From Dehalococcoides sp. JdFR-54 (lineage in GTDB: Bacteria > Chloroflexota > Dehalococcoidia > JdFR-54), in NCBI GenBank assembly GCA_002011475.1, contig MTNP01000005.1:15336-79335 (forward strand): a stretch of DNA of 64,000 bases, written 5' to 3'. Under the pieces are notes generated by a model. It saw only the letters and a program-made list of their open reading frames with translations. It ran no database searches and had not been told where the DNA came from. Positions 23,846 through 53,100 of the stretch are shown here, piece by piece (positions within the stretch are counted from its first letter, which is position 1; every line of letters begins with the position of its first letter). Made by a program: the position numbers and the translations under genes.

Positions 23846-23878
23846 AACCATGCCTGGGGGGCCAGCCCGCGTTGCGGG
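23846..23878. terminator. perfect 15-bp stem / 3-nt loop hairpin between convergent mutS and sucD
   Basis: GGGGGGCCAGCCCGC-GTT-GCGGGCTGGCCCCCC. There is no clear U-tract on either side. Confidence 0.5.
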
Positions 23879-23911
23879 CTGGCCCCCCCAAACATCGTCT
23901 CCTTATGTCGC

Positions 23912-25968: not shown

Positions 25969-26031
25969 AAAGCCACTCCCCTCCGAGACATCAATTGACC
26001 AGGCCTCATGGTGGCGGAGGGGGTGGGATTC

Positions 26032-26122
26032 GAACCCACGGCCCCGAGAATCGAGGCAGCGGTTTTCAAGACCGCCTCCTTAAACCGCTCGGACACCCCT
26101 CCTATGCAGGATAGTATACCTG
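26032..26122 (-). tRNA. tRNA-Ser (anticodon UGA), 91 nt with long variable arm
   Basis: The minus strand reads GGAGGGGTGTCCGAGCGGTTTAAGGAGGCGGTCTTGAAAACCGC...GTGGGTTCGAATCCCACCCCCTCCGCCA. It has a 7-bp acceptor stem, anticodon loop CUUGAAA, GTTCGAATC T-loop and encoded CCA. It resembles E. coli tRNA-Ser(UGA). Confidence 0.85.
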
Positions 26123-26200: not shown

Positions 26201-27208
26201 TCAGCAGATCCTGGGCAATAACTCGCCCACCAACATATCCAGGAGGCGGCTGGCCCCCAAGAGGGTTTTCATCACCACCCGCCCTGGATGCTGGGCAGTG
26301 ACCTCCCCGATGATGGCGGCCTGGGCACCATATCTATTGCCCTTCATTGCCGCCAGCACCCTTTCCGCATCCTCGGGGGCCACTACGGCCACCAGCTTGC
26401 CCTCGTTGGCCACATAGAGGGGGTCGAATCCCAGAAGCTCGCAGGCCGCCTGCACCGCCTCCCGCACCGGCACCCTGGCCTCCTCGATGCGGATGCCCAC
26501 CCCCGACTGTTGGGCCAGCTCGTTGAGGCTGCTCACCAGCCCGCCTCGGGTGGGGTCGCGCAGGCAATGGATATTGGGGGAGGCCCCGAGCATCTCGGCC
26601 ACCAGGTGGTTAAGGGGGGCGCAGTCGCTGTCCACCGGCACCGAGAACTCTAGGCCCTGGCGCCGGCTCATAACGGCGACACCGTGGTCGCCCACCGGGC
26701 CGCTGAGGATGACCTTGTCCCCGGGGCGAGCGTTGGCGCCCGATATATCAACCCCATGGGGTACCAGTCCTATGCCCGAGGTATTAATGAATATGCCATC
26801 GGCGCCGCCCCGGTTCACCACCTTGGTATCGCCGGCCACCACCTTGACCCCGGCCTCGGCTGCCGCCTCCCGGATGGAGGCCACTATCTGTTTCAGGCCC
26901 CCCAGGGCGAAGCCCTCCTCGATGACAAAGGACAGGGTGAGGTATAAAGGCCGGGCGCCGCTCATGGCCAGGTCGTTGACGGTGCCGCACACGGCCAGCT
27001 TGCCGATATCGCCGCCGGGAAAGAAGATGGGGCTCACCACATAGCTATCAGTGGTGAAGGCGAGGCGGCCGCTGAGGTCGAAGACGGCGCAGTCGTCCAG
27101 CCTATCCAGCAGGGGATTGCTGAGGAGGGGGACCAGGGTCTGCTGCACCAGGTCGTGGCTGAGCTTGCCGCCGCTGCCGTGGGCCAGCAGTATGGTATCC
27201 TCATTCAT
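26201..27208 (-). CDS. hypE: hydrogenase maturation protein HypE (AIR synthase-like)
   Basis: MNEDTILLAHGSGGKLSHDLV, ending in the C-terminal ...PRIC cysteine. It has PurM-like domains. Confidence 0.85.
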   Translation of the reverse strand: MNEDTILLAHGSGGKLSHDLVQQTLVPLLSNPLLDRLDDCAVFDLSGRLAFTTDSYVVSPIFFPGGDIGKLAVCGTVNDLAMSGARPLYLTLSFVIEEGFALGGLKQIVASIREAAAEAGVKVVAGDTKVVNRGGADGIFINTSGIGLVPHGVDISGANARPGDKVILSGPVGDHGVAVMSRRQGLEFSVPVDSDCAPLNHLVAEMLGASPNIHCLRDPTRGGLVSSLNELAQQSGVGIRIEEARVPVREAVQAACELLGFDPLYVANEGKLVAVVAPEDAERVLAAMKGNRYGAQAAIIGEVTAQHPGRVVMKTLLGASRLLDMLVGELLPRIC

Positions 27209-28292
27209 GGTCAGCTCCATATTGGTAGTAGGCGGCACAGCTCCCCTCCGAGGAGACCATGCACGGGCCTACCGGATGCTCCGGGGTGCACACCCTGCGG
27301 AACAGCTTGCAGTCCAGGGGGGTTTTGACGGCCCGGAGGATGTCTCCGCAGAGGCAGCCAGCCGGCTCCAGGGTGGGGCCGGGGTCTATTTGGAATTGGG
27401 CCTCGGCGTCGAAGCTGCGGTACTTCTCCCTCAGCTTCAGCCCGCTCTGGGGCACGGTGCCGATGCCTCGCCAGGTGGCTTGGCTCTCCTCAAAGACAGT
27501 GGCCATGAGCCTCAGAGCCTGGGGATTCCCCTCGGGCTTGACGCCCCGTCTATAGGCTATCTCCACTTTGGGCTCCCCCCTCTCCACTTGGGCCACCAGC
27601 ATCTCCACGCTGAGCAGGATATCCAGAGGCTCAAACCCCGAGACCACGCAGCCAATGCCGTAGCCAGTGGGGATAAATCCCCAGGGGCGGGAGCCGATGA
27701 CGGCGCTGACATGGCCGGGGCAGATGAGGCCATCCAGCCTCACCTCTCCGGAGTCGAGCAGGGCCTTGATCACCGGGGGGCACAGCTTGTGCAGGGGGAG
27801 GACGAAGTAGTTGTGGATGGCCTCCGCCTCCGCCTGGAGCACCGAGGCGGCCACAGTGGGGGCGGTGGTCTCGAAGCCGATGCCCAAGAACACCACCCGC
27901 TTATCGGGGTTGTCCCGGGCCATGGCCAGGGCATCCCGGGTGGAGTAGACCACCCTTATATCGCCGCCCTCAGCCTTGGCCTGCTGAAGGCTGGAGCGGC
28001 TGCCCGGGACTTTAAGCATATCGCCGAAGGTGGCTAGGATCACGCCCGGCTCCTTGGCCAGGGCGATGGCCTTGTCCAGCTCGGCGTTGGCGGTGACGCA
28101 CACGGGGCACCCCGGCCCGGAGAGCATCTCCACGGTGGGGGGGAGGAGCTGGCGAATACCATGCTTGAAAATGGTAACAGTATGCCCCCCGCAGAACTCC
28201 ATGATCCGGGCGGGCCTGGTGGAGAGCTTATGTATCCGATCCACCAAGCGCTTGCCCAGTTCCGGGTCACGATATTCGTCTACATACCTCAT
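27201..28292 (-). CDS. hypD: hydrogenase maturation protein HypD
   Basis: Motifs CGGH, GPGCPVC and C-terminal CxxH/CPVC-type cysteines, and 363 aa. Confidence 0.9.
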   Translation of the reverse strand: MRYVDEYRDPELGKRLVDRIHKLSTRPARIMEFCGGHTVTIFKHGIRQLLPPTVEMLSGPGCPVCVTANAELDKAIALAKEPGVILATFGDMLKVPGSRSSLQQAKAEGGDIRVVYSTRDALAMARDNPDKRVVFLGIGFETTAPTVAASVLQAEAEAIHNYFVLPLHKLCPPVIKALLDSGEVRLDGLICPGHVSAVIGSRPWGFIPTGYGIGCVVSGFEPLDILLSVEMLVAQVERGEPKVEIAYRRGVKPEGNPQALRLMATVFEESQATWRGIGTVPQSGLKLREKYRSFDAEAQFQIDPGPTLEPAGCLCGDILRAVKTPLDCKLFRRVCTPEHPVGPCMVSSEGSCAAYYQYGADHE

Positions 28293-28326
28293 TTTTTGAC
28301 CTCTTTCGGCCTGGGCCCTTCGTCTT

Positions 28327-28548
28327 TCAAGCCGACTCCTCGGCCAGCTCGCGCAAGAGCTTCAGGGTCTCCTCAGCCTCCCCGGCGTCGATGACATTTA
28401 TGGAATAGCCGGTGTGGAGGAGCACGTAATCGCCCACCTTCACTTCCGGGGTGAGGGCGATGCTGATGCGGCGGCCCACCCCACCCACCTCAACCTCCGC
28501 CTCCTGTCCTGTGACGGATTTGACCAGGGCTGGTATGGCCAGACACAT
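28327..28548 (-). CDS. hypC: hydrogenase maturation protein HypC
   Basis: MCLAIPA N-terminus with the essential Cys2, and 73 aa. Confidence 0.8.
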   Translation of the reverse strand: MCLAIPALVKSVTGQEAEVEVGGVGRRISIALTPEVKVGDYVLLHTGYSINVIDAGEAEETLKLLRELAEESA

Positions 28549-28550
28549 AG

Positions 28551-30854
28551 CTAATTCCTCTTCTTATTATCTAGAATGGCATTGGCGATCACCGCCTGAC
28601 CCAGGGAGATGCCACCGTCGTTGGTAGGCACGAGATTGTGGCTCAGGACTTGGAAGCCCGCCCCCTCCAACGCAACATGGGTCAACCTGAATAGCAGCCG
28701 ATTTTGGAAGACCCCGCCGCTCAGGGCCACCACTTTGAGGCCCGTCTTCTCAGAGATAAGCTGGCACATGCGCAGCACCATTCGGGTCACCGTATTGTGG
28801 AACCTGGCGGCGATGATCGGGTTGGGCGTGCCCCTCTTCATATCGGAGATGATGGCCACAAACAGCTCCCCAAGCTTGATGACGTATTTGCCTTCTTCCT
28901 CGGCAATGGAAAAGGGGTATTCCTCGGCCACGCCCGGGGCCGAAAGCATCTCCAGCTCGATGGCAGCCTGGGCCTCATAGTCGATCTCGCCCCTGAGGCC
29001 GATGAGCGCCGAGACCCCATCGAAGAGCCGCCCCAGGCTGGAGGTAAGGGGCGAGTTGAATTTCTTTTCCACCTGGCCCCGGACAATCCTTATTTCCTCA
29101 GCGGAAATCTCTTTGAGGAAAGCCAGCCCTGGGTCGAAAAGCCCCAGCTCCAACAAATAGCTCAAGGCCATACGATAGGGGCGCTTGATGGCAGCGGCGC
29201 CGCCGGGGAGGGGCATGTTTTCCAGGTGGCCCCAACGCTGAAATCGCCCATAGTCCGCCACCAAGAACTCGCCGCCCCAGATGAGGCCATCGGTGCCATA
29301 ACCCACCCCATCTAACGACACCCCGATAACGGGCTCCGAGACCCCGTTTTCCACCATACAGCTCACGATGTGGGCGTGGTGGTGCTGCACCGGGACGAAT
29401 GCCAGGTTGTTGGGCTGGGCCTGTAGTTCCTTGGTGTACTTGGTGGAGAGGTATTCGGGGTGCATATCGTAGGCCACAGCCTCGGGCTGGATACGGAACA
29501 GCTTCTTATATAGCTCGATAGTGGTCTCGAAGTGCTCCAGGGTCTCCAGGTTTTCCAGGTCGCCGATGTGCTGGCTGAGGAAGGCATGGCCCTCCCTGGT
29601 AAGGCAAAAGGTGTTCTTGAGCTCGGCGCCGCAGGCCAGGATCTGCCTTACGGGGAAGGGAAGGTGGATGGGGTAGGGGGCATAGCCCCGGGCCCGGCGC
29701 AGCACCCGAGTCCTGCCCAGTTCTACCATGGTCACGCTGTCGTCGTAGCGGGCGTAGATGTCCCGGTCGTGCATCAGGAAATAATCCGCCAGATTGCCGA
29801 GGCGGCGCAGGGCCTCGTCGTTGTCCTTGGCGATGGGCTCCTCGCTCAAATTTCCGCTGGTCATCACCAGGGGCAGACCTGTCTCCCGGAGGAGGAGGTG
29901 GTGCAAAGGGGTATAGGGCAGCATCACCCCCAGGTATCTCAGATTGGGGGCCACCTCCGGGGTCACTGGGGAGCCCGCCTTCCAGGGCAGCAACACGATG
30001 GGGCTCTCCGGGGAGAGGAGCAGCCTCTCCTCCTCGGCGGATACCTGACAATGCTTCCTGGCCTCCTCCAAGCTGGCCACCATGATGGCCAGGGGCTTGA
30101 AGGGGCGCCTCTTGCGCTGCCTCAGAAGTCTCACCGCTTCCTGGCTGGTAGCATCACAGGCGAGGAGGAATCCCCCCAGGCCCTTGACGGCCACGATTTT
30201 GCCCCCTTGGAGCAATTGGCTGGCCGTGGTGAGGACATCTTCGGCGGGTATGGGGTTGCCTCTATTATCCGTTAGCTCCAACCGGGGCCCGCACCGGGGA
30301 CAGGCGTTGGGCTGGGCATGGAAGCGGCGATCCAGGGGGTCGTCGTATTCCCGCTGACAGTGGGGACACATTCGGAAGCGCCGCATGGTGGTCAGGGGCC
30401 GGTCATAGGGGATGTCCTCGATGATGGTGAAGCGGGGGCCGCAATTGGTGCAATTGGTAAAGGGATAGCGATAGCGCCGGTTCTGGGGGTCGAAGACCTC
30501 CTTTTGGCACGGCTGACAGGTAGCGATATCGGGGGAGACGAGCTGATATTTGTCGGCCTCAGCGATGCTCTCCCGGATATGGAAGTCGGCGTAGCCCACG
30601 GGTGGCAGCCGGGTGGTGGCGATGCTCTCGATGCGGGCCAGGGGCGGGGCCTGGCTTTCCAGTTCAGCCAGGAAGCGCTCCAGGGCCTGGCCCTCTCCCT
30701 CCACCTCGATCTTGACATCCCCTGAAGTGTTGCACACCCAGCCCTTGAGGCCATGCTTGGCAGCCAGCTGATATACGAAGGGCCGGAAGCCCACCCCTTG
30801 AACTACGCCCCGGACACTGATGCCGAGGAGCTCCACGGTTTTGGTCTTGGCCAT
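28551..30854 (-). CDS. hypF: carbamoyltransferase HypF
   Basis: N-terminal acylphosphatase domain (VRGVVQGVGFRPFV), two Zn-finger CxxC pairs, then YrdC-like and Kae1-like domains. 767 aa. Confidence 0.9.
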   Translation of the reverse strand: MAKTKTVELLGISVRGVVQGVGFRPFVYQLAAKHGLKGWVCNTSGDVKIEVEGEGQALERFLAELESQAPPLARIESIATTRLPPVGYADFHIRESIAEADKYQLVSPDIATCQPCQKEVFDPQNRRYRYPFTNCTNCGPRFTIIEDIPYDRPLTTMRRFRMCPHCQREYDDPLDRRFHAQPNACPRCGPRLELTDNRGNPIPAEDVLTTASQLLQGGKIVAVKGLGGFLLACDATSQEAVRLLRQRKRRPFKPLAIMVASLEEARKHCQVSAEEERLLLSPESPIVLLPWKAGSPVTPEVAPNLRYLGVMLPYTPLHHLLLRETGLPLVMTSGNLSEEPIAKDNDEALRRLGNLADYFLMHDRDIYARYDDSVTMVELGRTRVLRRARGYAPYPIHLPFPVRQILACGAELKNTFCLTREGHAFLSQHIGDLENLETLEHFETTIELYKKLFRIQPEAVAYDMHPEYLSTKYTKELQAQPNNLAFVPVQHHHAHIVSCMVENGVSEPVIGVSLDGVGYGTDGLIWGGEFLVADYGRFQRWGHLENMPLPGGAAAIKRPYRMALSYLLELGLFDPGLAFLKEISAEEIRIVRGQVEKKFNSPLTSSLGRLFDGVSALIGLRGEIDYEAQAAIELEMLSAPGVAEEYPFSIAEEEGKYVIKLGELFVAIISDMKRGTPNPIIAARFHNTVTRMVLRMCQLISEKTGLKVVALSGGVFQNRLLFRLTHVALEGAGFQVLSHNLVPTNDGGISLGQAVIANAILDNKKRN

Positions 30855-30867
30855 AGCTGTGGGCGGT

Positions 30868-31209
30868 CTATTCTACCTCGATGCTCTCCAAATAGCACTC
30901 TCCGCCGCAGAGGAGCTCGCCACGCATGCTGTGGCATTGGGGACAGACCCAGGTGGGGTCCTGGGCCGAGGAGGTAGCACCGCAGTCGCGACAACGCATC
31001 TGGGTGCCGATGTGGCGGAAGGTGATGTCGGCCTCGGCGGCCAGGCTATCCTTACGGAGCATATCGAAGTAGAAGCGTATAGAGTCCTCGGTGTAGCCGG
31101 AGCCATCACCGAGAGCGATGTTCAGCCTGAGGACCTTGGAGGCGTTGGCGGCCCGGGCTTGCTCCAGGGCGGTCTTGAGCAGGCTTTCCGTTATGTGTAA
31201 CTCATGCAC
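30868..31209 (-). CDS. hypA: hydrogenase Ni-incorporation protein HypA
   Basis: MHELHITESLLK N-terminus (MHE Ni site) and C-terminal CxxC...CxxC Zn site. Confidence 0.85.
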   Translation of the reverse strand: MHELHITESLLKTALEQARAANASKVLRLNIALGDGSGYTEDSIRFYFDMLRKDSLAAEADITFRHIGTQMRCRDCGATSSAQDPTWVCPQCHSMRGELLCGGECYLESIEVE

Positions 31210-31441: not shown

Positions 31442-32332
31442 ATGGCAGCAAAGATTATCTCGGGGACGGAGGTGGCAGCGGAGATTCGGGGAGAGCTGAA
31501 GCAGAAGGTGGCTGAGCTGAAGGAGAAGGGGATAACCCCCGGGCTAGGGGTCATCCTGGTGGGGGAGGATCCAGCTTCCGTCTCCTACGTTACCGGCAAG
31601 GCCAAGGGATGTGAGGAGATAGGGATATTTGAGGAGACCTTCAGGCTCCCCGCCGAGGCTACGGAAGAGGAAGTCCTGGCCATGGTGGACAGGCTGAATA
31701 AGGACCCCAGGTTCCACGGCATCCTGGTGCAGCTTCCCCTGCCCAAGCATATCGACGAGAAGAAGGTGTTGGTGGCCATCTCGCCGGAGAAGGATGTGGA
31801 CTGCTTCCACCCGGTGAATGTGGGCAAGTTGCTCATAGGCGAGGCCGATTTCCTGCCCTGCACCCCCCACGGCGTGCAGCAGCTCTTGGTCAGGAGCGGC
31901 AACAGCCCCGAGGGCAAGCACGTGGTCATCTGCGGCCGGAGCAACATCGTGGGCAAGCCCCTGATGGCCATGCTGGTCCAGAAGGCCAAGGGGGCCAACG
32001 CCACCATCACCGTGTGCCATACCGGGACCAGGGACCTGGCCTCTGTTACCCGGCAAGCCGACATCCTGGTAGCAGCGGCGGGTTCCCCACAGATGATCAA
32101 GGCAGATATGGTTAAGGAGGGAGCCGTGGTCATCGATGTCGGGGTCAATCGCATCCCCGATGAGACCAAGAAGAGCGGCTTCCGCCTGGTGGGGGATGTG
32201 GACTTCGAGGCTGTGGCCGAAAAGGCTTCGGCCATTACCCCGGTGCCTGGGGGCGTGGGGCCGATGACGGTGACCATGCTCCTGGTGAACACGGTGCGAG
32301 CTGCCGAGAGGCAGGCCGCAGCCAGGACATAG
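31442..32332 (+). CDS. folD: bifunctional 5,10-methylene-THF dehydrogenase / methenyl-THF cyclohydrolase
   Basis: [37 protein letters not shown], and 296 aa. Confidence 0.9.
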
Positions 32333-32386: not shown

Positions 32387-34150
32387 ATGCCTTATGATGC
32401 GCTAAAAATGAAGGATTGGGAGATCGCAGAAGCAGCCGAAGCTAATATGCCAACCCCCGATGAATGGCGAGAAAGACTTAACTTGCAAAAGGATGAGATT
32501 ATCCCCTATGGGAGACTGTGCAGACTTGATTTCATGAAGATCATCGAGCGCCTCAAGGACAAGCCGGACGGCAAGTACATTGAGGTGACGGCCATTACCC
32601 CCACGCCGCTGGGAGAAGGAAAGACCACAACCACCCTGGGCATCCTGGAGGGCCTGGGCAAGCGGGGCAAGAATGTGGGCGGCTGCATCCGCCAGCCCTC
32701 AGGTGGTCCCACCATGAATATCAAGGGAACCGCCGCCGGTGGTGGCAATGCCCTGCTCATTCCCATGACCGAATTCTCCATGGGACTTACCGGCGATATA
32801 AATGATATAGGCAATGCCCACAACCTGGCCATGGTGGCGCTTACCGCCAGAATGCAGCACGAGCGCAACTATAGCGATGAGGAACTGGCCAGTCGCAGCC
32901 GGATGCGCCGCCTGGACGTTGACCCTACCAGGGTGGAGATGTGCTGGGTTATGGATTTTTGCGCCCAGAGCCTGCGCAATATCATCATCGGCCTTGGCGG
33001 CCCCATGGATGGCTTCCTGATGCAGTCCAAGTTCGCCATCACCGTGAGCTCCGAGCTCATGGCCATGCTGTCCATTGCCAGGGACCTGGCGGACCTGCGG
33101 GAAAGGATGGATAACATCACCGTGGCGTTCGATAAAAGGGGTAAACCCATCACCACGGGCGATCTGGAAGTGGGTGGCGCCATGACGGCCTGGATGCGCA
33201 ACACCATCAATCCCACCCTGTGTTGCACTGTAGAGTATCAGCCTGTGATGGTGCATGCCGGCCCCTTTGCCAACATCGCGGTGGGCCAGTCCTCCATCAT
33301 TGCCGACCGCATTGGCCTGAAGATGTTTGACTACCATGTCACCGAAAGCGGCTTCGGGGCAGATATCGGTTTCGAGAAGTTCTGGAACGTCAAGTGCCGC
33401 TTGAGTGGTCTCAAACCACACGTTTCGGTGCTAACCACCACCATCCGGGCCCTGAAGATGCATGGCGGCGGACCCAGGGTGGTGGCTGGCCTTCCCCTAT
33501 CCGAAGAGTACACTAAGGAGAACCTGGAGCTCTTGGAAAAGGGCCTGGCCAACATGCTGCACCACATAAACATCATCAGAACCTCTGGCATTAACCCGGT
33601 GGTGTGCATCAACTCCTTCCACACCGACACCAAGGATGAGATCGCCATGGTCCGAAGGGCGGCCGAGGCGGCCGGTGCCCGCTGTGCTGTGGCTACCCAC
33701 TGGGCCCACGGGGGCGATGGCGCCCTGGAGCTGGCCGATGCGGTTATAGAAGCCTGCGAAGAGAAGAATGAATTCAAATTCCTGTATCCCATGGAAATGA
33801 AATTGCGGGAGCGGGTGGACAGGATCGCCAAAGTAGTTTATGGCGCCGATGGCGTGACCTGGACCCCTGAGGCCGAGGCCAAGGCCAAAATGCTCGAGGC
33901 CGATCCCAAATACGATGAGTACTCCACAATGATGGTGAAAACCCACCTGAGCCTCACCCACGATCCGGCCATCAAGGGTGTTCCCAAGGGGTGGACACTG
34001 CCCATACGCGACGTGCTGATCTATTCCGGGGCGAAGTTCCTCTGCCCCTGTGCCGGGACCATTAGCCTGATGCCGGGAACCAGTTCCGACCCGGCCTTCA
34101 GAAGGGTAGACGTCGATACCAGCACCGGTAAAGTGCGGGGGCTTTTCTAA
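32387..34150 (+). CDS. fhs: formate--tetrahydrofolate ligase
   Basis: [18 protein letters not shown]-loop motif and 587 aa. Confidence 0.9.
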
Positions 34151-34228
34151 AAACCCGGGGCCCACTTTTGTCCCGGTTGCCCCCGGCCGAACATGGGCGA
34201 GACGGAGGGTGGTTCTAAACTGTCTTCG

Positions 34229-34275
34229 GGGAAATCTTGGGGCAAGGCGGATGCCGCCTTGCCCCAAGATTTCCC
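34229..34275. repeat. perfect 22-bp stem / 3-nt loop palindrome downstream of fhs
   Basis: GGGAAATCTTGGGGCAAGGCGG-ATG-CCGCCTTGCCCCAAGATTTCCC. No U-tract follows. It sits at the transition to a lower-GC segment. Confidence 0.7.
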
Positions 34276-34361
34276 TGTGGCTAAGATGATAACAACAGGA
34301 ACACACCAGCCCCAGGCTTGGGGCGGAAGGCAATATCGTATCGGGAAAAGGAGACACGCCC

Positions 34362-35333
34362 GTGCTTGAAAGCGCTGAAAACTGGCTCACAGAGGTCAAA
34401 AACATAGCAGTACTTGGTGCCGGAACCATGGGACATGGCATCGGCCAGGTGTTTGCCCTGGCTGGATATGATGTCATGCTATATGATATAGACGACGCTA
34501 TCCTGCAAAGGGCCATGGCACGCATCGATTCCAACCTCGATGTTTTCATAGAAAATGGTTTGGCCACAGAGGAGGCGAAACAACGAGCGTTGTCGAAAAT
34601 CAACACCACCACAGACCTAGCTACTGCGGTCGGAGAGGCCGATTTTGTCCTAGAGGCAATCCCTGAAATGCTGGAGCTGAAACAAAAGACCTTTCACGAT
34701 GTGGAGAGGATGTGTCGTGAAGGCACTATATTGGCCAGTAACACCTCCAGCTTTACCATAAGCGATATCGGCGCCCTGTGCCAGCGGCAGGACAATCTCG
34801 CCATCGCCCACTGGTTTAACCCACCGCACATCGTGCCCCTGGTAGAGGTGGTCAAAGGCCCCAAAACCTCCCCCCAAACTGTGGAATGTATCTGTGCCCT
34901 TCTGGACAAGGTGGGCAAAAAGCCGGTGAGGATCATGAAGGAGGTGGCCGGCTTCCTGGCTAACCGGATGCAGATGGCCCTATTTCGTGAGGCCTGTTCC
35001 CTCCTTGAAAGGGGGGTGGCCGGGGCTGAAGATATCGACACCGCAGTGAAGGCCAGTTTCGGCTTCCGCTTGCCCACCATCGGCGTCTTTGAAACCATGG
35101 ACTTGGCTGGATTGGACACCGTTCTCCGGGTGGCTGAGGAACTATTCCCAGATATCGAAAACTCGATTGAGGTACCGCGATTGATAAGAGAGCTGGTGAG
35201 GCAAGGCAAGTTCGGAGCCAAGACCGGAGAGGGTGTTTACCAGTGGCCCAAACAAAAACTGGATGCCCTCATCAGAGAGAGAGACAGACAATTCCTACAA
35301 AGGTTGAAGCAGCTATATCTGGACAAGGCGTGA
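34362..35333 (+). CDS. 3-hydroxyacyl-CoA dehydrogenase-family NAD-dependent dehydrogenase (Hbd / L-carnitine dehydrogenase-like)
   Basis: GTG start with RBS AAAGGAG. It has a Rossmann N-terminus IAVLGAGTMGHGIGQVFALAGYDVMLYD and the 3HCDH C-terminal domain. Confidence 0.8.
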   Translation: MLESAENWLTEVKNIAVLGAGTMGHGIGQVFALAGYDVMLYDIDDAILQRAMARIDSNLDVFIENGLATEEAKQRALSKINTTTDLATAVGEADFVLEAIPEMLELKQKTFHDVERMCREGTILASNTSSFTISDIGALCQRQDNLAIAHWFNPPHIVPLVEVVKGPKTSPQTVECICALLDKVGKKPVRIMKEVAGFLANRMQMALFREACSLLERGVAGAEDIDTAVKASFGFRLPTIGVFETMDLAGLDTVLRVAEELFPDIENSIEVPRLIRELVRQGKFGAKTGEGVYQWPKQKLDALIRERDRQFLQRLKQLYLDKA

Positions 35334-35385
35334 GGCTGGTGCTCAGCGCGAGCAAGGCGTGGCACACATAGGAAGGAGGCAAATC

Positions 35386-36306
35386 ATGAGGAAGGTGTTC
35401 ATAACGGCGGCCATCACAGGGGCTATCCATACCCCTACTATGAGCCCCTACCTCCCCATCACCCCCGACGAGATCGTGGAAAATGCGGTAGGGGCCTGCG
35501 AGGCTGGGGCAGCTATAGCCCATATTCACGTGCGAGATCCGGAGACCGGACGGCCTGTCTCCAGGGTTGACCTCTTCCGAGACATAGCGAGCAAAATCAA
35601 GAAACGGTGCAATATGGTCCTCTGCGTCACCACCGGGGGAGGTCTGGGCCAGACCGACGAGGAGCGGCTCAGGGTGGTGCCCGAGCTACAGCCCGAACTA
35701 TGTTCCTTTAACCAGGGCTCGATGAACTTCGGCATTTTCCCCCTGCTGGAGAAGATCCCAGAGTTCAAATTCCCCTGGGAAAAATCATACATCGAAATGA
35801 CCTACGATTTTATTTTCCCGAATACCTTTAAGAGCCTCTCCAACTTCGCTCGAGCCATGTCCCAATACGGGACAAAGCCGGAGTTGGAAGTTTACGACGT
35901 GGGCATGATCAATAATGCCCGTTGGCTGATACAGCAGGGATTGCTGAAGCAACCGGTTTACATCCAGTTTGTGATGGGCATAATGGGGGGCATCCCAGCC
36001 ACGGTGGAAAACCTGGTCTTCCTCTACAAGACCGCCCGCGAGGCCATCGGCGATTTCATTTGGTCGGTAGCCGCGGCGGGGAGGAGCCAAATGCCTATGG
36101 CAGCCACCTCCCTGGCACTGGGAGGCAATGTCCGGGTTGGCCTGGAAGATGCCTTGTATGTGGGCAAGGGACAACTGGCCAAAAACAATGCCGAGCAAGT
36201 GGAGAAAGCGGTTCAAATGATAAATGCCCTTGGCCTAGAGGTGGCTACCCCTGACGACGTCAGGGAAATCTTGGGATTGAAGGGTCTGGATAAAGTGAAC
36301 TTTTAA
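35386..36306 (+). CDS. beta-keto acid cleavage enzyme (BKACE / 3-keto-5-aminohexanoate cleavage enzyme family, DUF849)
   Basis: MRKVFITAAITGAIHTP with Zn ligands of the HIH...E type. RBS GGAAGGAGG. 306 aa. Confidence 0.8.
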   Translation: MRKVFITAAITGAIHTPTMSPYLPITPDEIVENAVGACEAGAAIAHIHVRDPETGRPVSRVDLFRDIASKIKKRCNMVLCVTTGGGLGQTDEERLRVVPELQPELCSFNQGSMNFGIFPLLEKIPEFKFPWEKSYIEMTYDFIFPNTFKSLSNFARAMSQYGTKPELEVYDVGMINNARWLIQQGLLKQPVYIQFVMGIMGGIPATVENLVFLYKTAREAIGDFIWSVAAAGRSQMPMAATSLALGGNVRVGLEDALYVGKGQLAKNNAEQVEKAVQMINALGLEVATPDDVREILGLKGLDKVNF

Positions 36307-36337
36307 ATCCATGCAGTCGGGTATGGTCCCGGTGCCT

Positions 36338-37600
36338 TCAGCCGGGCAACTCGAAGTATTGCATGGTGATATCGGGCACCACCGCTACCTTCGCCTTGTT
36401 GCCGAAATCGGCCTTGAGCATGCCGATCACCTCGTCCCATGTCCCAACCACATTTATGTCCTCCAGGGGGGCAAGCCAGTCTAGGCTAGCTCGATCCATA
36501 TAGGGCATGAGCAGGATGAACTTCCTGGCCCGGCTCAACTTGGGGGGGTCTTTCCACAACTGCCCCCCCGTATTCCTGCCGTGCTTCCGCATCAGGTAGT
36601 GGGGCACCTCGCCCACGGGGTTATTGCTTATCAGCACCAGGGTGCCGCCCCTTTCGGGCAGCGTGGCCTCAGCCACCCGGGCCCCGACCACGGCCTCGGT
36701 TACCTTGGCATTGCCGTTGGCCACCACTATATCGGCATCCTCTACCACGGGGCTGAGATAATGTTCCTTAGCCAGCTTCACAGCCTCATCGTACTCCAAG
36801 ATGGGGTCACCGACGAAGAGGGCCGTGGTATCCCGCTTCAGGTTGACCACGGCATCGACCTTGACATCCAGGCCCGACATCCGGCACACATCCTCCATGT
36901 CCAGGCGCATCTCGCAATCCTCGTTTCGTCCCATGCCGCCCAAGGCCTGGGGGCCCATTTTCTGAGCCTTAGCGCGGACGACCCCGTGGTTATGGACGAT
37001 GGTCTCCATGGAGGACACGCCAGGCATGATGATCTTAGCTCCGCCGCCATAGCCCACCAAGTAATGCGGTACCACACTGCCTATGCCCACCTTGAGGTCG
37101 CATCGCAGGACCTCCGAATTCACGGCCACCAGTGTGCCCCGACCGGTCTTGCCTATGTAGGTACAGTTCTCATAGGGGTTATGGTTATATACAGGGTAGC
37201 GGGCCACCACATCACTGCCCAGCTTCTTTCTGAAGTCGGCGGCGGTACAGGCTCCGTGGGTGCCCACGGCACAGATAAACTGGATGTCATCGTCCTTTAT
37301 GCCTCCCTCCCTCAGCTCCGCCAAGACATAGGGCACGATTTCCGCCGCCTTGGTAGGACGGGACAGGTCATCGAAAAGGATCACTGCATCCTTCTTGCCC
37401 CTGGCCAGCTCCCTTATAGTCTTGGTTCCTATAGGATTGGCGAACGCCTTTCGAAAGCCTTCATCGCTGAGCTTGGGAGCATCATGGCCCTTCATATGGC
37501 AGGTGATCACCTCCCAACCCTCAGGAAAAGGAAGCTGGGTATCCACATCTCCCCACCAGGAAAGCTGGGGCACCGTTGCTACATTCTCGGTCTCGAGCAT
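36338..37600 (-). CDS. larA: LarA-family Ni-pincer-cofactor-dependent 2-hydroxyacid racemase/epimerase homolog
   Basis: 420 aa with N-terminal DUF2088-type domain. Its size and overall composition resemble lactate racemase LarA. No larB/C/E are in the window. Confidence 0.65.
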   Translation of the reverse strand: MLETENVATVPQLSWWGDVDTQLPFPEGWEVITCHMKGHDAPKLSDEGFRKAFANPIGTKTIRELARGKKDAVILFDDLSRPTKAAEIVPYVLAELREGGIKDDDIQFICAVGTHGACTAADFRKKLGSDVVARYPVYNHNPYENCTYIGKTGRGTLVAVNSEVLRCDLKVGIGSVVPHYLVGYGGGAKIIMPGVSSMETIVHNHGVVRAKAQKMGPQALGGMGRNEDCEMRLDMEDVCRMSGLDVKVDAVVNLKRDTTALFVGDPILEYDEAVKLAKEHYLSPVVEDADIVVANGNAKVTEAVVGARVAEATLPERGGTLVLISNNPVGEVPHYLMRKHGRNTGGQLWKDPPKLSRARKFILLMPYMDRASLDWLAPLEDINVVGTWDEVIGMLKADFGNKAKVAVVPDITMQYFELPG

Positions 37601-37747
37601 CTTATCCTCCTCTGAGACGGGGAACCTGGGCCGACAGAGGTTCCGCCGGTTCCTTGAAAATCCAGAACAGGACGGGTATCATGTTAGCATATTATGTCCC
37701 ATTTGGGCAATCCGTGAGCGCCCTGCTTGAGAAAGGAGCCGAGAAGT

Positions 37748-38824
37748 ATGAACCGGGCAGACCTTGTCGGCAAGGTGCAGACCGTACTGGGAATCATTGA
37801 CCCCCAGGATCTGGGTATCACCCTCACTCATGAGCATTGCCTCCTCGATATGGCGGTTTGGTTTATGGAGCCCGCCGAGGCTAGCCAGAGGGCCCTGGCC
37901 CACCAGCCCATCACCCTGGAGAACATCGGTTGGGTGCGCTATCACCCCATGAGCCACCGGGAGAACCTGCGACTCCTCGATGAAGAGCTGGCCATAAAGG
38001 AGCTGCAACTCTACAAGTTGGCCGGGGGCCACAGTCTGGTCGATGTCACCAATATCGGCCTGGCCCGGGACCCTATGGCGCTGAGGCGCATCGCCCGAGC
38101 CACCGGCCTCAACATCATTATGGGCTCGGGCTACTACGCAGGGCCAGCCCATCCGCCGGAGGTGGAGGGAAAGACCGAAGAGGAGATCGCCGAGGAAATC
38201 GTGCATGACATCATGGTGGGGGTAGCCGATACCGGGGTTCGCGCCGGGATCATCGGCGAGCTCGGCTGCTCCTGGCCGCTCATGGACAGCGAGCGCAAGG
38301 TGCTGCGGGCCGGCGCCCGGGCGCAGCAGCTCACCGGGGCAGCCTTGACCATCCACCCCGGACGCCACGAGTCCGCCTACCGCGAAGTCCTTGACTTCCT
38401 GGGCAATGCCGGGGCTGACCTCAGCCGCACCATCATCGACCATTTTGACCGCTGCCTTTTCGACCGTGACCGGCGCCTCAAGCTGGTTGAGGATTGCGCC
38501 AAAACGGGCTGTTACATCGAATACGACCTCTTCGGCTGGGAAGGCTATTATCCCTTCGCCCTGGCCCCCCAGGCGGGGTTCGATCTGCCCAACGACCGGC
38601 AGCGGGTGGACGATATCTCCAGGCTGATCGACCGGGGATACTTGAACCAGATAGTGGTGGGGCAGGACATGTGTATGAAGATGCGCCTCTGCCGCTATGG
38701 TGGTCATGGCTATGCCCACATTCTGGACAATGTGCTGCCCCGGATGCGGGACCACGGCATCTCCGATGAGGCCATCCATACCATCCTGGTGGAAAATCCG
38801 AGGCGGGTGCTCACTTTCGTCTAG
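37748..38824 (+). CDS. phosphotriesterase-homology protein (PTE-like amidohydrolase, probable lactonase)
   Basis: ITLTHEHCLLD matches Php YTLAHEHLHID. There are binuclear-metal His motifs. RBS AAAGGAG. Confidence 0.8.
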   Translation: MNRADLVGKVQTVLGIIDPQDLGITLTHEHCLLDMAVWFMEPAEASQRALAHQPITLENIGWVRYHPMSHRENLRLLDEELAIKELQLYKLAGGHSLVDVTNIGLARDPMALRRIARATGLNIIMGSGYYAGPAHPPEVEGKTEEEIAEEIVHDIMVGVADTGVRAGIIGELGCSWPLMDSERKVLRAGARAQQLTGAALTIHPGRHESAYREVLDFLGNAGADLSRTIIDHFDRCLFDRDRRLKLVEDCAKTGCYIEYDLFGWEGYYPFALAPQAGFDLPNDRQRVDDISRLIDRGYLNQIVVGQDMCMKMRLCRYGGHGYAHILDNVLPRMRDHGISDEAIHTILVENPRRVLTFV

Positions 38825-38845
38825 GCGAATATCCGGGAGGCGACC

Positions 38846-39493
38846 ATGCTTGCCAAAGAGGAAGCCCTGAAAGCCATCGCGGGCTGCGGCGTCATCGCCG
38901 TGATCAGGACGGAGAGCAGCGCTCAGGCCGTAGCTGTCGCCACAGCTATCAAAGAGGGCGGCATCACTCCCATCGAGATAACCATGACCGTCCCCGGGGC
39001 CCTGGATGCCTTGAAGGAGGTGGGCCATCTCCTCAAGGGCACAGGCTTGCCGGGGGCAGGCACTGTCCTCGACCCAGAGACGGCCCGCGCCGCCATCCTG
39101 TCGGGCGCCGAATTCGTGGTCAGCCCCACCCTAAACCTGGAGGTGATCAAGCTGTGTCAGAGGTATGACAAGGTGGTCATCCCTGGCGCCTTTACCCCCA
39201 CCGAGATCCTGACCGCCTGGGAGGCGGGGGCAGACATCGTCAAGGTCTTCCCGGCCACGGTGGGCGGGCCCCAATACTTCAGGGATTTGAAGGGGCCCCT
39301 GCCCCAGATAAAGCTCCTGCCCACCGGAGGGGTGAGCCTGGAGAACACCGCCGAGTTCATCAGGGCCGGGGCGGTAGCGGTGGCGGTGGGCACCGCCCTG
39401 GTAGACAGGCAAGCGGTGGCGGAGCAGAGGTTTGAGGTTATCACTGAAAGGGCCCGCCAATTCATCGAGGCGGTGCGCCAGGGCAGGCAGTAG
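38846..39493 (+). CDS. eda: 2-dehydro-3-deoxyphosphogluconate (KDPG) / KHG aldolase
   Basis: GCGVIAVIRTES, GITPIEITMTVPGA, and 215 aa. Confidence 0.85.
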   Translation: MLAKEEALKAIAGCGVIAVIRTESSAQAVAVATAIKEGGITPIEITMTVPGALDALKEVGHLLKGTGLPGAGTVLDPETARAAILSGAEFVVSPTLNLEVIKLCQRYDKVVIPGAFTPTEILTAWEAGADIVKVFPATVGGPQYFRDLKGPLPQIKLLPTGGVSLENTAEFIRAGAVAVAVGTALVDRQAVAEQRFEVITERARQFIEAVRQGRQ

Positions 39494-39527
39494 CCCACTT
39501 TCCGCAGTCCTACCCAAGGGGGATGCT

Positions 39528-40511
39528 ATGTACGATGTTGTCACCTTCGGCGAGGCGATGATCAGGCTCTCCCCGCCTCACTTCCAAAGGCTGGAGCAGG
39601 CCCAGAGCCTGGAGGTCCAGGTGGGAGGGGCTGAGTTGAATGTGGCGGTGGCCCTGAGCCGGCTGGGGCTCCGGGTATGCTGGGTGTCGCGCCTGCCCCA
39701 GAACCCCCTGGGGGCCATGATCCGCAATAAAGCCAGGGAGCAAGGGGTGGATACCAGCCACATCCTTTGGGCCAAGGAGGGCAGGGCAGGCCTCTACTTC
39801 GTGGAATTCGGCGCCTCTCCCCGGGCCAGCCGGGTGCTCTATGACCGGGCAGCCTCAGCCATAAGCCAGATACAGCCCGGAGAGGTGGGCTGGGAGGAAA
39901 TACTGAGAAAGACCAGGCTGTTTCATGTGAGCGGCATCACCCCCGCCCTCAGCACCAGCGCCGCCCAGGCCACCGGCGAAGCCCTCCAGGTGGCCAAAAA
40001 GGTGGGCTGTACGGTGAGCTATGACCTCAACTACCGGGCCCGGCTGTGGACGGAGGAGAAGGCGAGACAGGTCCAGACCCCGTTCATGGACAAGGTGGAC
40101 ATCCTCTTCTCCACCGAGGAGGATACGGGACGGGTGTTTGGCATCAGGGGGGATGACTACCGAGCCGTGGCCCACAAGCTGGCAGAGCACTTCGGCTTCC
40201 AGGTGGTGTGCATCACCCTCCGCGAGGATATCACGGTCTGGCGCAATCGATGGACGGCCATAGCCTACTCCGAAGGGAAATTCTACGACGACCGAAGCTA
40301 TGAGGTGGAGATCGTAGACCGCCTCGGGGCCGGCGACTCCTTCGCCGCCGGCTTTATTTACGGCTATCTCGCCGGAGATATCGCCCAGGGTGTAAGGTAC
40401 GGCAATGCCCTCGCTGCCCTGAAGCACTCCATCCCCGGGGATGTGAATTGGGCGACCGGGGAGGAGATGGAGGCCCAGATCAAGGGCGCTGGGCTGCGTA
40501 TCAGCAGGTAG
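39528..40511 (+). CDS. kdgK: 2-dehydro-3-deoxygluconokinase (PfkB family)
   Basis: MYDVVTFGEAMIRLSPP N-terminus and C-terminal GAGDSFAAGFIYG anion hole. The ATG at 39528 is preferred over the upstream extension. Confidence 0.85.
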   Translation: MYDVVTFGEAMIRLSPPHFQRLEQAQSLEVQVGGAELNVAVALSRLGLRVCWVSRLPQNPLGAMIRNKAREQGVDTSHILWAKEGRAGLYFVEFGASPRASRVLYDRAASAISQIQPGEVGWEEILRKTRLFHVSGITPALSTSAAQATGEALQVAKKVGCTVSYDLNYRARLWTEEKARQVQTPFMDKVDILFSTEEDTGRVFGIRGDDYRAVAHKLAEHFGFQVVCITLREDITVWRNRWTAIAYSEGKFYDDRSYEVEIVDRLGAGDSFAAGFIYGYLAGDIAQGVRYGNALAALKHSIPGDVNWATGEEMEAQIKGAGLRISR

Positions 40512-40557: not shown

Positions 40558-40959
40558 ATGAAAGAGGAACACAGAATCATCAGGCGATCGGGGGAACGAA
40601 GGATCATCATCGCAAACTCCATTGCAACCATAGACGAGAGTAACCGGAATGATGTGGTCATTACTGGCTCTCATTGCGGCATAAACGTCGGCGAATACGC
40701 TTCAAATTTAGGGGTTCGGGGAGTCATTGGAAACGATGCCGGAAAGGGCAGGGACAACGCCGGCATCGCCGGCTTGGAAATCCTAGAGAGGCATGGCATT
40801 CCAGGGGCCGCTGTCTCCACTATGTCAGCGCGCATCGGCAATGGGATGAGCACCTATGAGGAGGGCATAATCTCCGCAGCCAATGAGGTGGCCAGGGGAT
40901 TGGGTATTGCCATCGGGATGTCGGCCAGGGAAGCCGCAGATAAGATATTTGAAAGGTGA
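40558..40959 (+). CDS. hypothetical protein (134 aa), family unassigned
   Basis: The ORF has clearly lower GC than its flanks. MKEEHRIIRRSGERRIIIANSIATIDES...VITGSHCG. I cannot place it in a family. Confidence 0.4.
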   Translation: MKEEHRIIRRSGERRIIIANSIATIDESNRNDVVITGSHCGINVGEYASNLGVRGVIGNDAGKGRDNAGIAGLEILERHGIPGAAVSTMSARIGNGMSTYEEGIISAANEVARGLGIAIGMSAREAADKIFER

Positions 40960-41002: not shown

Positions 41003-42034
41003 TCAAGGATATAGTAGCACTTTGCCCGTTTCCCCGCCTGCCGCCAGCTCCAGGGCACTGCTGAAGTCAGCCAAGGGGAAGCGATGGGTTATCACGGGCA
41101 TGGGGTCGAACCTTCCCGACTCTAGCAGGTATTGCATCTGCCACCATGTCTGCCACATTATCCGGCCCGTGCAGCCCAGCACCGTGGCCTCTTTATAGAT
41201 GATGTCCTCGGGGGTATCCAGCTCCACCGGCGCTGAGGGCATCCCGATCAGGCTGACCCTGCCCCCCCGCCGCAGTACCTGGAAGGCCATTTTGGTGGCC
41301 TCGGTGCTGCCACTGACCTCCAGGGAGACATCCACCCCCCGACCCTCGGTAGCCTCGAGGATGGCCCTGACCACATCTTCCCTTGCGGGGTTAAGCAACC
41401 TGGCCTGGGGGGCCAACCGGTGAGCCATGGCCAGTCGGGTGGGATTGGGCTCCAAGGCGAAGACCTTGGTTGCCCCCAGGGCAGCCACGACACCGACACA
41501 AAACAGGCCGATGGGCCCGCAACCGAAAACGGCCACGCTTTTGCCGTTGATCTCCCCCGAGAGGGCGCCGTGTACCGCCACCCCCAAGGGCTCCAAGATG
41601 GCGCCCAAGTCGGCAGGGGTGTCCTTGCTGAGTCGCCAACAGCAGACGGCGGGGATTCTAGCATATTCCGCAAAGGCGCCATCGGTGTGAACGCCGATAA
41701 TGGCCATTCTCTCGCAGATATGCTGGGCCCCCGTCTGGCACTGGTAGCATTGGCCACAGGGTATGTGCGTTTCCACAGCCACCAGGTCGCCCAGCTTCGG
41801 GGTGGTCACCTGGTCGCCCACCGCCACCACCTCCCCACACGCCTCGTGGCCGAAGATCAGCGGCGGCTTGAGCCTGGCCTGGGCAAAGGGAGTCCAGTGG
41901 TAGATGTGAATATCGGTGCCGCATATAGCCGCAGCCTTCACCCGGATCAGGACATCTGTGGCCCCGATGGTGGGTATATCCACATCCAGGAGTTCGGCTC
42001 CGGGAGCCCTGCCTGTCTTCACCAAGGCTTTCAT
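41003..42034 (-). CDS. Zn-dependent medium-chain alcohol/polyol dehydrogenase (threonine-3-/sorbitol-dehydrogenase family)
   Basis: GHEACGEV catalytic Zn motif, structural Zn CGQCYQCQTG, and Rossmann VFGCGPIGL. Confidence 0.8.
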   Translation of the reverse strand: MKALVKTGRAPGAELLDVDIPTIGATDVLIRVKAAAICGTDIHIYHWTPFAQARLKPPLIFGHEACGEVVAVGDQVTTPKLGDLVAVETHIPCGQCYQCQTGAQHICERMAIIGVHTDGAFAEYARIPAVCCWRLSKDTPADLGAILEPLGVAVHGALSGEINGKSVAVFGCGPIGLFCVGVVAALGATKVFALEPNPTRLAMAHRLAPQARLLNPAREDVVRAILEATEGRGVDVSLEVSGSTEATKMAFQVLRRGGRVSLIGMPSAPVELDTPEDIIYKEATVLGCTGRIMWQTWWQMQYLLESGRFDPMPVITHRFPLADFSSALELAAGGETGKVLLYP

Positions 42035-42260: not shown

Positions 42261-42767
42261 ATGCAAAAGAAAGAGCCGCGTGCCACCCCAGAGGAGTTCA
42301 AAAAAGGGGTTGTTCGCTACCAGGATGTGCCCCTGGTGGAGCTGATGCCCCATGCCCACAGCCACATTGTCTCGGGCAAGAATGTGTTGGTCAGCTTTAT
42401 CACTATGAGCGCCAACTCCTCCTTCGCCCTCCATCGGCATGAAGCCGAACAGATCATGATCGTTGTCGATGGCTATTGCGATGAGATCATCGAGGGCAAA
42501 CTCTACCGGGTGCAGAAGGGAGATGTCATCCTTCTCCCTCCCAATATAGAACATGGCGCCTATGTCTATGAACAGCCCTGTAGCGCCATCGATATCTTCT
42601 CCCCGCCGCGGCAAGACTATCTAGACAAACTGAACAAGGCCATAGAGGCACAGGCCAATAACAGGGTGTGCCCGGCTTGTGTTTTCCGGGCAGGCCCTGG
42701 GCCGAGATTGGCCACAACGCTGTTGTCCCCGTTCTGCTATAATACGGGTGGCAAGCCGGCGGCTTAG
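42261..42767 (+). CDS. cupin-domain protein
   Basis: Conserved-barrel motifs HxH...E...H: HAHSHIV, ALHRHEAEQIMIV, PPNIEHGAY. Confidence 0.5.
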   Translation: MQKKEPRATPEEFKKGVVRYQDVPLVELMPHAHSHIVSGKNVLVSFITMSANSSFALHRHEAEQIMIVVDGYCDEIIEGKLYRVQKGDVILLPPNIEHGAYVYEQPCSAIDIFSPPRQDYLDKLNKAIEAQANNRVCPACVFRAGPGPRLATTLLSPFCYNTGGKPAA

Positions 42768-47957: not shown

Positions 47958-47962
47958 CGTTA

Positions 47963-52807: not shown

Positions 52808-53008
52808 AATAATAAAGGGCACGCAGCCATGCGTGCCCCCTGTCCCTTTGCCTGAGAGATTCGCCCTACAACGGGCCTTCCCCTTCGGCCCCCCACATTA
52901 CGGGGTGTCTCCAGGCGGTCATCACAACTGCAGTCCTTTTGCCTGAGAGTTTCGGCCCAAACCGCGCCTTGCCCCTTCGGCTCCCCAATCATGGGGCCTC
53001 TCCTGCAG
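52808..53008 (-). ncRNA. glycine riboswitch (tandem aptamers) with intrinsic-terminator expression platform, leader of lipB-lipA-gcvH-PA-PB-(gcvT::glyA)
   Basis: Aptamer 1 (minus strand): CUGCAGGAGAGGCCCC..GGGGAGCCGAAGGGGCAAGG...ACUCUCAGGCAAAAGGACUGCAG. Aptamer 2: CCUGGAGACACCCC..GGGGGGCCGAAGGGGAAGG...AUCUCUCAGGCAAAGGGACAGG. Both carry the conserved GGAGA, CCGAAGGGG and CUCAGGCAAA(A)GGAC cores. Then comes GGGCACGCA-UGGC-UGCGUGCCC followed by UUUAUUAUU. Confidence 0.85.
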
Positions 53009-53100
53009 TTGCATTTGCAACATAGCATATGGGACAGGGTTTGTCAACCGCCCCGATTGACCGCCGGGGGTGATGGAGCCATCAGTGCCGCTGGGGGCCC

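Follow-up and report, generated by a model that had tools for sequence, protein, structure and literature searches.

What lies behind a conserved gene when a long and perfect inverted repeat follows its stop codon, and what do the genes beyond that repeat do? Both questions are raised by a 64,000-nt stretch of contig MTNP01000005.1 from Dehalococcoides sp. JdFR-54 (hereafter the window). Within the window, folD (31442-32332, + strand) and the formate--tetrahydrofolate ligase gene fhs (32387-34150, +; 1089 bits against a cut-off of 938 for NF010032, and E = 9e-215 for PF01268) are followed by a 211-nt intergenic region (34151-34361) holding a perfect 47-nt palindrome (34229-34275, +). Beyond it lie the gene for a dehydrogenase of the 3HCDH family (34362-35333, +) and the gene for a beta-keto acid cleavage enzyme, or BKACE (35386-36306, +). 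The answer that we favour, tentatively, is that the palindrome acts in RNA, as a 3'-end or attenuating stem-loop that parts folD-fhs from an accessory dehydrogenase-BKACE pair read through at a lower level. Here and below, the role given to the hairpin is the one that seems most likely from its sequence.

The hairpin behind fhs

The hairpin reads GGGAAATCTTGGGGCAAGGCGG-ATG-CCGCCTTGCCCCAAGATTTCCC, and its arms (34229-34250 and 34254-34275) form 22 of 22 Watson-Crick pairs around a 3-nt loop. It stands 78 nt past the fhs stop codon (34150) and 86 nt ahead of the GTG start codon of the dehydrogenase gene (34362), and its tail, TGTGGCTAAGATGAT, contains no T-run. The initial annotation had described the hairpin in the same way, as a perfect 22-bp stem closed by 3 nt of loop that lies right after fhs and lacks a U-tract. 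The intergenic region is identical in the Logan assembly of SRR3723048, an assembly possibly built from the same reads. When the whole window was folded in sliding 50-nt segments, the background was -13.7 ± 4.8 kcal/mol and only three places fell below -44 kcal/mol, the hairpin among them.

Searches for further copies of the arm found no second one anywhere in the window, even with as many as three mismatches allowed, and 0 of 100 shuffles gave a match. An exact scan with an 18-nt segment of the arm returned 10 single-arm matches, all in unrelated genomes, from 185,579 representative genomes, 26 single-arm matches from JGI metagenomes and 0 from IMG/VR viral contigs, with no palindromic copy in any of these three collections, which do not contain the source assembly. 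Single-arm matches at this level are consistent with chance. The proviso of the initial annotation, that the palindrome might prove to be one of many copies resembling repetitive extragenic palindromic (REP) elements, was therefore not borne out in the window or in the three collections. No Rfam family matched the hairpin at the gathering threshold; at a relaxed E-value only eukaryotic microRNA-precursor models appeared, far under their thresholds, which is generic hairpin similarity. Among the features of a canonical intrinsic terminator, the site has the GC-rich stem-loop soon after a stop codon and lacks the U-tract directly after the stem, and the terminator scan did not flag it. The hairpin is real and exceptional, and it is not a canonical terminator. 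An open reading frame (ORF) of 58 codons (34193-34369) runs across it and ends 5 nt past the dehydrogenase start codon; this ORF was rejected as a gene, since it lacks a Shine-Dalgarno sequence and shows flat GC content by codon position (0.56/0.59/0.54) and is thus probably non-coding. A plasmid origin was likewise rejected, the only matches being weak ones (66-71%) to coding regions of homologous genes.

Several observations bear on a role in RNA. The fhs gene is the terminal gene of the conserved folD-fhs unit, and the hairpin lies in its 3' region, on the fhs sense strand. In RNA of this + strand the stem grows from 22 to 24 pairs (34227-34277) and reaches -49 kcal/mol (z = -10.6 against shuffles), compared with the 22 pairs and -45.8 kcal/mol that remain in RNA of the - strand, a gain that supports action in the transcript. 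In a relative (locus L051), the textbook terminator AAAGGGCGGCGCT-C-AGCGCCGCCCTTT is found 22 nt past the fhs stop codon, and it is thus usual in the group for a transcript to end behind fhs. The window also contains a second perfect intergenic hairpin (23856-23888), with a 15-bp stem, the loop GTT, a folding energy of -38.6 kcal/mol and no T-run. It lies 74 nt past the stop codon of mutS (21241-23781), so that it is like the fhs hairpin in geometry and unrelated to it in sequence. Terminators with a U-tract were not enriched over shuffles in any of three stretches scanned (10 vs 10.1, 10 vs 7.7 and 18 vs 13.6), and the lineage may end its transcripts mostly by means other than a U-tract. Sigma-70-like promoters, by comparison with shuffles, were about twofold in excess at 1-20 kb (12 vs 5.2) and at 40-60 kb (12 vs 5.4), where good intergenic examples occur, and were not enriched at 31-40 kb (5 vs 3.7); between the hairpin and the dehydrogenase start, no sigma-70-like site reached 9 of 12 matches.

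We suggest that the folD-fhs transcript has in its 3' region a stem-loop of high stability, which would either end or attenuate transcription without the help of a U-tract, or block 3'-exonucleases. Either way, fhs mRNA would be stabilised and the accessory pair would receive reduced expression only, since the dehydrogenase and BKACE genes, which have no recognisable promoter of their own, would depend on residual read-through. The fhs gene upstream of the hairpin is probably well expressed, and the genes past it are expected to be needed at a lower level.

The dehydrogenase and BKACE genes

The dehydrogenase (323 aa) begins with GTG, 8 nt downstream of an AAGGAG Shine-Dalgarno sequence, and carries the domains 3HCDH_N (PF02737, E = 2e-62) and 3HCDH (PF00725, E = 2e-24). 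It scored under the cut-off of every NCBIfam equivalog, the acyl-CoA dehydrogenase models included. Alignment to the HBD of C. butyricum (4KUG) showed His138, Ser117 and Asn188 to be retained as H150, S129 and N201, and together with E162 these make up a conserved catalytic His-Glu dyad, Ser and Asn. The CoA-contacting residues Lys56 and Asn221 of HBD are replaced by Leu67 and Arg236, with a two-residue insertion at the Arg236 site; among 120 homologues of the dehydrogenase, Arg236 is invariant and position 67 is hydrophobic. The replacement of both contacts speaks against a true acyl-CoA-specific HBD/HAD. The closest solved structure, 4OM8, belongs to an enzyme that acts on a free carboxylate substrate. 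For the dehydrogenase, the predicted substrate is a free (S)-3-hydroxy acid, not an acyl-CoA. The initial annotation had taken a dehydrogenase-BKACE pair of this kind to be characteristic of L-carnitine dehydrogenase and 3-dehydrocarnitine cleavage. This assignment failed on the L-carnitine dehydrogenase models, which gave 151.9 against 414 bits (NF005471) and 170 against 592 bits (NF005716), and by these scores carnitine is rejected as a candidate substrate of the pair.

The BKACE (306 aa) starts with ATG, preceded by AGGAAGGAGG, and matches PF05853 over all of its profile positions (1-274 of 274) with 362.4 bits against a gathering threshold of 24.8. Its metal-binding and catalytic residues H46, H48, E254 and D255 are at least 98% invariant in 120 homologues. 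H46, H48 and E254 probably correspond to His46, His48 and Glu230 of Kce. The best-scoring model, by 140 bits, was NF053538 (3,5-dioxohexanoate:acetyl-CoA acetone transferase) with 421.7 bits; on this model, relatives of the BKACE scored 403 (L005) and 342 (L007). The Kce of lysine fermentation was rejected (NF052387, 280.4 vs 382 bits), as was the 3-oxoadipate BKACE model (209 against a cut-off of 350). Its closest solved structure is 3LOT, an uncharacterised protein (372 bits), and Kce itself (2Y7D) gave 182 bits.

A characterised precedent exists for such a pair. The dehydrogenase CsTfD of Clostridium scatologenes has the same active-site pattern as the dehydrogenase described here and oxidises free (S)-3-hydroxy-5-oxohexanoate to triacetate, and TAL (triacetate acetoacetate-lyase), a BKACE, cleaves triacetate with acetyl-CoA to give acetoacetate and acetoacetyl-CoA (PMC10470551). 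Because of the model scores, the active-site residues and this CsTfD pattern, we read the pair as a putative free 3-hydroxy-acid dehydrogenase with a BKACE, for which triacetate-type substrates are the leading candidates. The 3HCDH-family enzyme would use NAD(P)+ to oxidise an (S)-3-hydroxy acid to the corresponding 3-keto acid, and the Zn-dependent BKACE would then move the acyl part to acetyl-CoA, yielding acetoacetate and an acyl-CoA; the substrate would most likely be of the 3-hydroxy-5-oxohexanoate/triacetate type or a close neutral analogue. The broader proposal of the initial annotation, that the two genes form a beta-hydroxy-acid module, is plausible in the light of their adjacency in other arrangements and of the characterised pathway (PMC10470551). 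If so, two annotations in the record would be corrected: '3-hydroxyacyl-CoA dehydrogenase family protein' to free 3-hydroxy-acid dehydrogenase, and '3-keto-5-aminohexanoate cleavage protein' to triacetate-type BKACE.

The two genes also stand out in base composition. In 48 genes encoding 150 aa or more, which served as reference, the GC was 0.618 ± 0.031 and the GC at third codon positions (GC3) was 0.789 ± 0.059; the GC of the window as a whole is 0.615, and the dehydrogenase and BKACE genes are its lowest-GC stretch. The dehydrogenase gene has a GC of 0.533 (z = -2.7), a GC3 of 0.627 (z = -2.8) and a Karlin codon bias B of z = +2.9, and the BKACE gene a GC of 0.549 (z = -2.2) and a GC3 of 0.687 (z = -1.7). 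Of all 2-kb segments, that at 34251-36250 combines the lowest GC (0.547, z = -2.8) with the largest tetranucleotide distance (z = +3.1). The plot of GC and codon usage that the initial annotation proposed thus excludes uniform composition. Its statement that both genes have clearly lower GC and AT-rich codons than the flanks holds for GC; the codons are only relatively AT-rich, because GC3 is still above 0.6, and the flanks are intermediate. GC descends from 0.623 in folD to 0.577 in fhs and 0.533 in the dehydrogenase gene, and rises again through the BKACE gene (0.549) and a LarA homologue (0.587) to 0.619 in a PTE-family hydrolase gene. The anomaly is a trough, not a box, and the hairpin marks no sharp boundary in it. 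Comparably low values are found elsewhere in the window, in gcvH (0.540), a cupin gene (0.551) and a 146-aa ORF (0.535).

The gene neighbourhoods of relatives differ for the two proteins. The closest homologues of the dehydrogenase lie on contigs with 45-48% GC. Dehydrogenases 70% identical to it stand in clusters of the order DctPQM-(epimerase or racemase)-3HCDH-BKACE-(ADP-forming CoA ligase), in which the BKACEs are 57% identical to the BKACE here, and dehydrogenases 67% identical to it stand alone after proBA. A clade of BKACEs with 65% identity occurs in clusters of the order DctPQM-BKACE-3HCDH-AtoE-like transporter-epimerase-ACS. The 88% identical BKACE relative (L004) is flanked by an aldehyde:ferredoxin oxidoreductase gene on one side and a pyridine-nucleotide disulfide oxidoreductase gene on the other, and no dehydrogenase lies near it. 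Since the adjacency of BKACE and 3HCDH recurs in several other Chloroflexi arrangements, the functional link between them is sound; the histories of the dehydrogenase and the BKACE, as judged from these comparisons, are discordant. As a separate observation, BKACE relatives of 74-75% identity lie behind three to four tandem PTE-family paralogues, both in Chloroflexi bacterium RBG_13_52_14 (L005, 2799-7855) and on a related contig (L006, 109-4169), where a nitroreductase and a CoA transferase of two subunits come after the BKACE. The PTE-BKACE arrangement suggests lactone hydrolysis followed by beta-keto-acid cleavage.

Relatives with an 88-90% identical fhs keep the order thyX-folD-fhs and carry unrelated genes downstream, and the site behind fhs is therefore a synteny breakpoint; among the relatives compared, none was collinear enough to provide an empty site. 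At the loci that hold homologues of the dehydrogenase or the BKACE, no comparable inverted repeat was found, so the hairpin is not carried along with these genes. Within 10 kb on either side of the pair (the range that applies wherever nearby genes are mentioned below) there is no integrase, transposase, tRNA or att site, the only tRNA of the window lying at 26015-26102. The pair is accessory and was probably acquired or reassembled in the lineage; it would have been placed there behind the conserved folD-fhs, probably from lower-GC Chloroflexi. Of the acquired small module that had been proposed, the atypical composition stands. The hairpin as the boundary of a discrete mobile cassette is not supported, given the absence of mobility genes, the GC drop inside fhs and the discordant neighbours.

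Alternative readings of the palindrome

A number of findings weigh against the joint reading of an RNA stem-loop that parts folD-fhs from an accessory pair. The hairpin has no U-tract and no counterpart in any relative examined; its 22 perfect pairs, with no G-U pair or mismatch, suit a selected RNA element less well than a recent event at the DNA level, and they point to the latter. The idea that such hairpins are a habit of the genome rests on two intergenic examples only. The composition anomaly includes fhs, with the GC drop starting inside this gene and the dinucleotide deviation peaking over it, and the 88% identical BKACE relative has a GC of 0.597 and lies in a contig of 61% GC. As to function, the BKACE falls 8 bits under the NF053538 equivalog cut-off of 430, and neither the SDR phloroglucinol reductase (adh_short) nor the cyclase-family dihydrophloroglucinol cyclohydrolase (DPGC) is among the called genes nearby, on which ground the presence of the whole phloroglucinol pathway at the locus was rejected.

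The perfection of the stem can also be explained without any function, and this is the first alternative to be weighed: the palindrome may be a product of template switching on quasi-palindromes that is tolerated in the intergenic region. We regard it as unlikely, yet it would account for the fact that none of the 22 pairs is G-U and for the occurrence of three perfect palindromes of 33-47 nt in 64 kb, one of them inside the coding sequence of mutL. In 144 kb of related Chloroflexi loci (L004-L055) there are no perfect stems of at least 15 bp, the maximum being 13 bp. Set against the three such stems here, this makes a lineage-specific palindrome-making process possible, and this genome may be peculiar in having long perfect palindromes. 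However, both intergenic hairpins lie 74-78 nt past the stop codon of a long gene and on its sense strand, which would not be expected of random placement. The mutL palindrome merits description in its own right. It is a perfect 42-nt palindrome (17752-17793; arms CTGGGCCAGGCCATCCAGGAG and CTCCTGGATGGCCTGGCCCAG; -45.5 kcal/mol) in a gene on the - strand (17542-19215), and the residues that it encodes, 475-488 (LGQAIQELLDGLAQ), belong to the MutL_C domain. An insertion artefact is excluded, since the ORF is intact and so is the match to the domain.

A second alternative, which we hold to be doubtful, makes the palindrome a DNA-level by-product of insertion. Illegitimate or fold-back recombination would have inserted a 2.03-kb segment with the dehydrogenase and BKACE genes behind fhs, and the palindrome and a 15-nt repeat would be its junctions. 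The right arm plus TG (34263-34277) is exactly complementary to CAGGGAAATCTTGGG at 36261-36275 (+), within the 3' codons of the BKACE gene (V-REILG), and 34226-34241 forms a direct repeat with 36260-36275 that agrees at 15 of 16 positions. The GC minimum coincides with the segment enclosed by these repeats (34226-36275). The hairpin has no longer match anywhere in the window than this one of 15 nt, and among 1500 random 57-nt segments only 7 (~0.005) were matched over 15 nt or more in the next 2.5 kb. The perfectly complementary arms with no G-U pairs, the broken synteny after fhs in relatives and the discordant closest contexts of the dehydrogenase and the BKACE would all fit. Against an insertion, however, no mobility gene or tRNA lies nearby, the compositional anomaly begins in fhs, and the 15-nt match was noticed after the fact. 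In addition, the right-hand copy lies in the conserved REILGLKG codons, 31 nt ahead of the BKACE stop codon, and a clean cassette boundary at this place would therefore cut the gene; BKACE homologues spell the REILG peptide with other codons. The similarity also stops at the arm. For the same reason, an arm that is a relic of the BKACE 3' end was rejected: the similarity is confined to the arm and the flanks are random.

The initial annotation had also considered an operator, a function in which a dimeric regulator would bind the palindrome in its double-stranded DNA form and control a promoter of the pair. Such a role is improbable. The dyad symmetry is perfect, and inspection by eye gives a promoter-like TTGCCC-17 nt-TAAGAT (34259-34264 and 34282-34287) whose -35 hexamer lies in the right arm, but this site has only 8 of 12 matches, under the threshold of the scan, which reported no sigma-70-like site in the intergenic region. 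A 47-bp palindrome with a 3-bp spacer is, moreover, much longer than known operators, and no regulator gene adjoins the pair, the nearest candidate being the cupin protein 6 kb away. It is more improbable still that the palindrome and the 15-nt repeat are the junctions of a 2-kb metabolic cassette inserted by a hairpin or fold-back DNA process active in the lineage, one that would also have made the other long perfect palindromes of the window, that of mutL included, with no recombinase encoded nearby. Least credible is a low-copy REP-like or miniature mobile repeat with other copies outside the 64-kb window, which has shape alone in its favour and is opposed by an arm that is single-copy in the window at up to three mismatches, by the lack of a palindromic copy in the three public collections, and by the absence of a GTAG-type REP head, an attC R'/R'' core and a target-site duplication. 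REP elements and miniature inverted-repeat transposable elements as such are disfavoured by missing core motifs, by size and by the copy number in the window and the three collections, and an integron attC site or gene cassette was rejected since the palindrome is perfect, has no R''/R' cores (RYYYAAC ... GTTRRRY) at its ends and has no integrase nearby.

Neighbouring genes and known systems

Upstream of folD, on the - strand, lies hypEDCFA (26201-31209). Downstream of the pair, the LarA-family homologue (36338-37600, -; PF09861 Lar_N, E = 7e-55) is convergent with the BKACE gene, with a spacer of 31 nt between them, and a functional link may exist; every NPN-racemase equivalog scored far under its cut-off on this protein. 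This homologue, in which Lar_N is the only domain, is followed on the + strand by the PTE-family hydrolase (37748-38824), an Eda aldolase (38846-39493) and a PfkB kinase of the KDG type (39528-40511), and the stretch at 36338-40511 resembles a cluster for lactones or sugar acids that includes an uncharacterised nickel-pincer epimerase. Next come a hypothetical protein (40558-40959, +) and a Zn-dependent L-threonine 3-dehydrogenase (41003-42034, -), which passed its equivalog model with 391.8 against 380 bits and lies near the glycine-cleavage genes, then the cupin protein (42261-42767, +) and a 2-oxoacid:ferredoxin oxidoreductase (from 42800, +). The glycine-cleavage operon (from 45291, -) includes an ORF of about 890 aa (45291-47978, -) that joins GCV_T and SHMT domains in an apparent GcvT-serine hydroxymethyltransferase fusion. 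It forms the distal end of a same-strand gene run below a glycine riboswitch (52921-53015, -; 68 bits), which is preceded by a promoter match, TTGACA-17-TATGTT, at 53047-53019.

Protective mRNA stem-loops at 3' ends or between cistrons have reportedly been found in the puf operon of Rhodobacter capsulatus and, as REP stabilisers, in malEFG of E. coli, and 'I-shaped' terminators that lack a U-tract are said to occur in mycobacteria. The fhs hairpin resembles these elements as a very stable, GC-rich stem-loop that has no U-tract and stands close behind a probably well-expressed gene, with genes of lower expected demand after it. It differs from them in being longer and more perfect (22 pairs), single-copy and not conserved in relatives. 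It would matter beyond this locus only if long, perfect stem-loops without a U-tract were the normal transcript ends of the lineage, or if they were the footprints of an unusual DNA process.

The enzymes have nearer counterparts. Kce (2Y7D), the founding member of the BKACE fold, has the HxH and E-D metal-binding and catalytic motifs in common with the BKACE here; its system differs in its lysine fermentation genes, which are not near the pair. The carnitine system, an L-carnitine dehydrogenase with a dehydrocarnitine BKACE, follows a like logic, in that a free 3-hydroxy acid is oxidised and the resulting 3-keto acid is cleaved with acetyl-CoA. A BKACE group is tied to carnitine degradation according to the summary of Bastard et al. 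(2014) given in a preprint (bioRxiv 10.1101/2023.02.15.528638). Genes for betaine or carnitine transport, or for downstream steps, are absent from the called genes near the pair.

The closest likeness is to CsTfD and CsTAL of the C. scatologenes phloroglucinol pathway, in which the same two families stand side by side (PMC10470551). As in CsTfD, the dehydrogenase here keeps the catalytic His, Ser and Asn and loses the equivalents of Lys56 and Asn221, and the likeness to CsTAL lies in the BKACE scoring highest on the 3,5-dioxohexanoate model. Unlike in the phloroglucinol cluster, the neighbours here are the LarA homologue and the PTE-Eda-KdgK set. The pair is thus known in kind, a TfD-like dehydrogenase with a BKACE, and represents ordinary accessory metabolism. 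In many uncultured Chloroflexi the pairing recurs together with TRAP transporters, a hint that a route from a hydroxy acid to acetoacetate and an acyl-CoA may be widespread in anoxic sediments.

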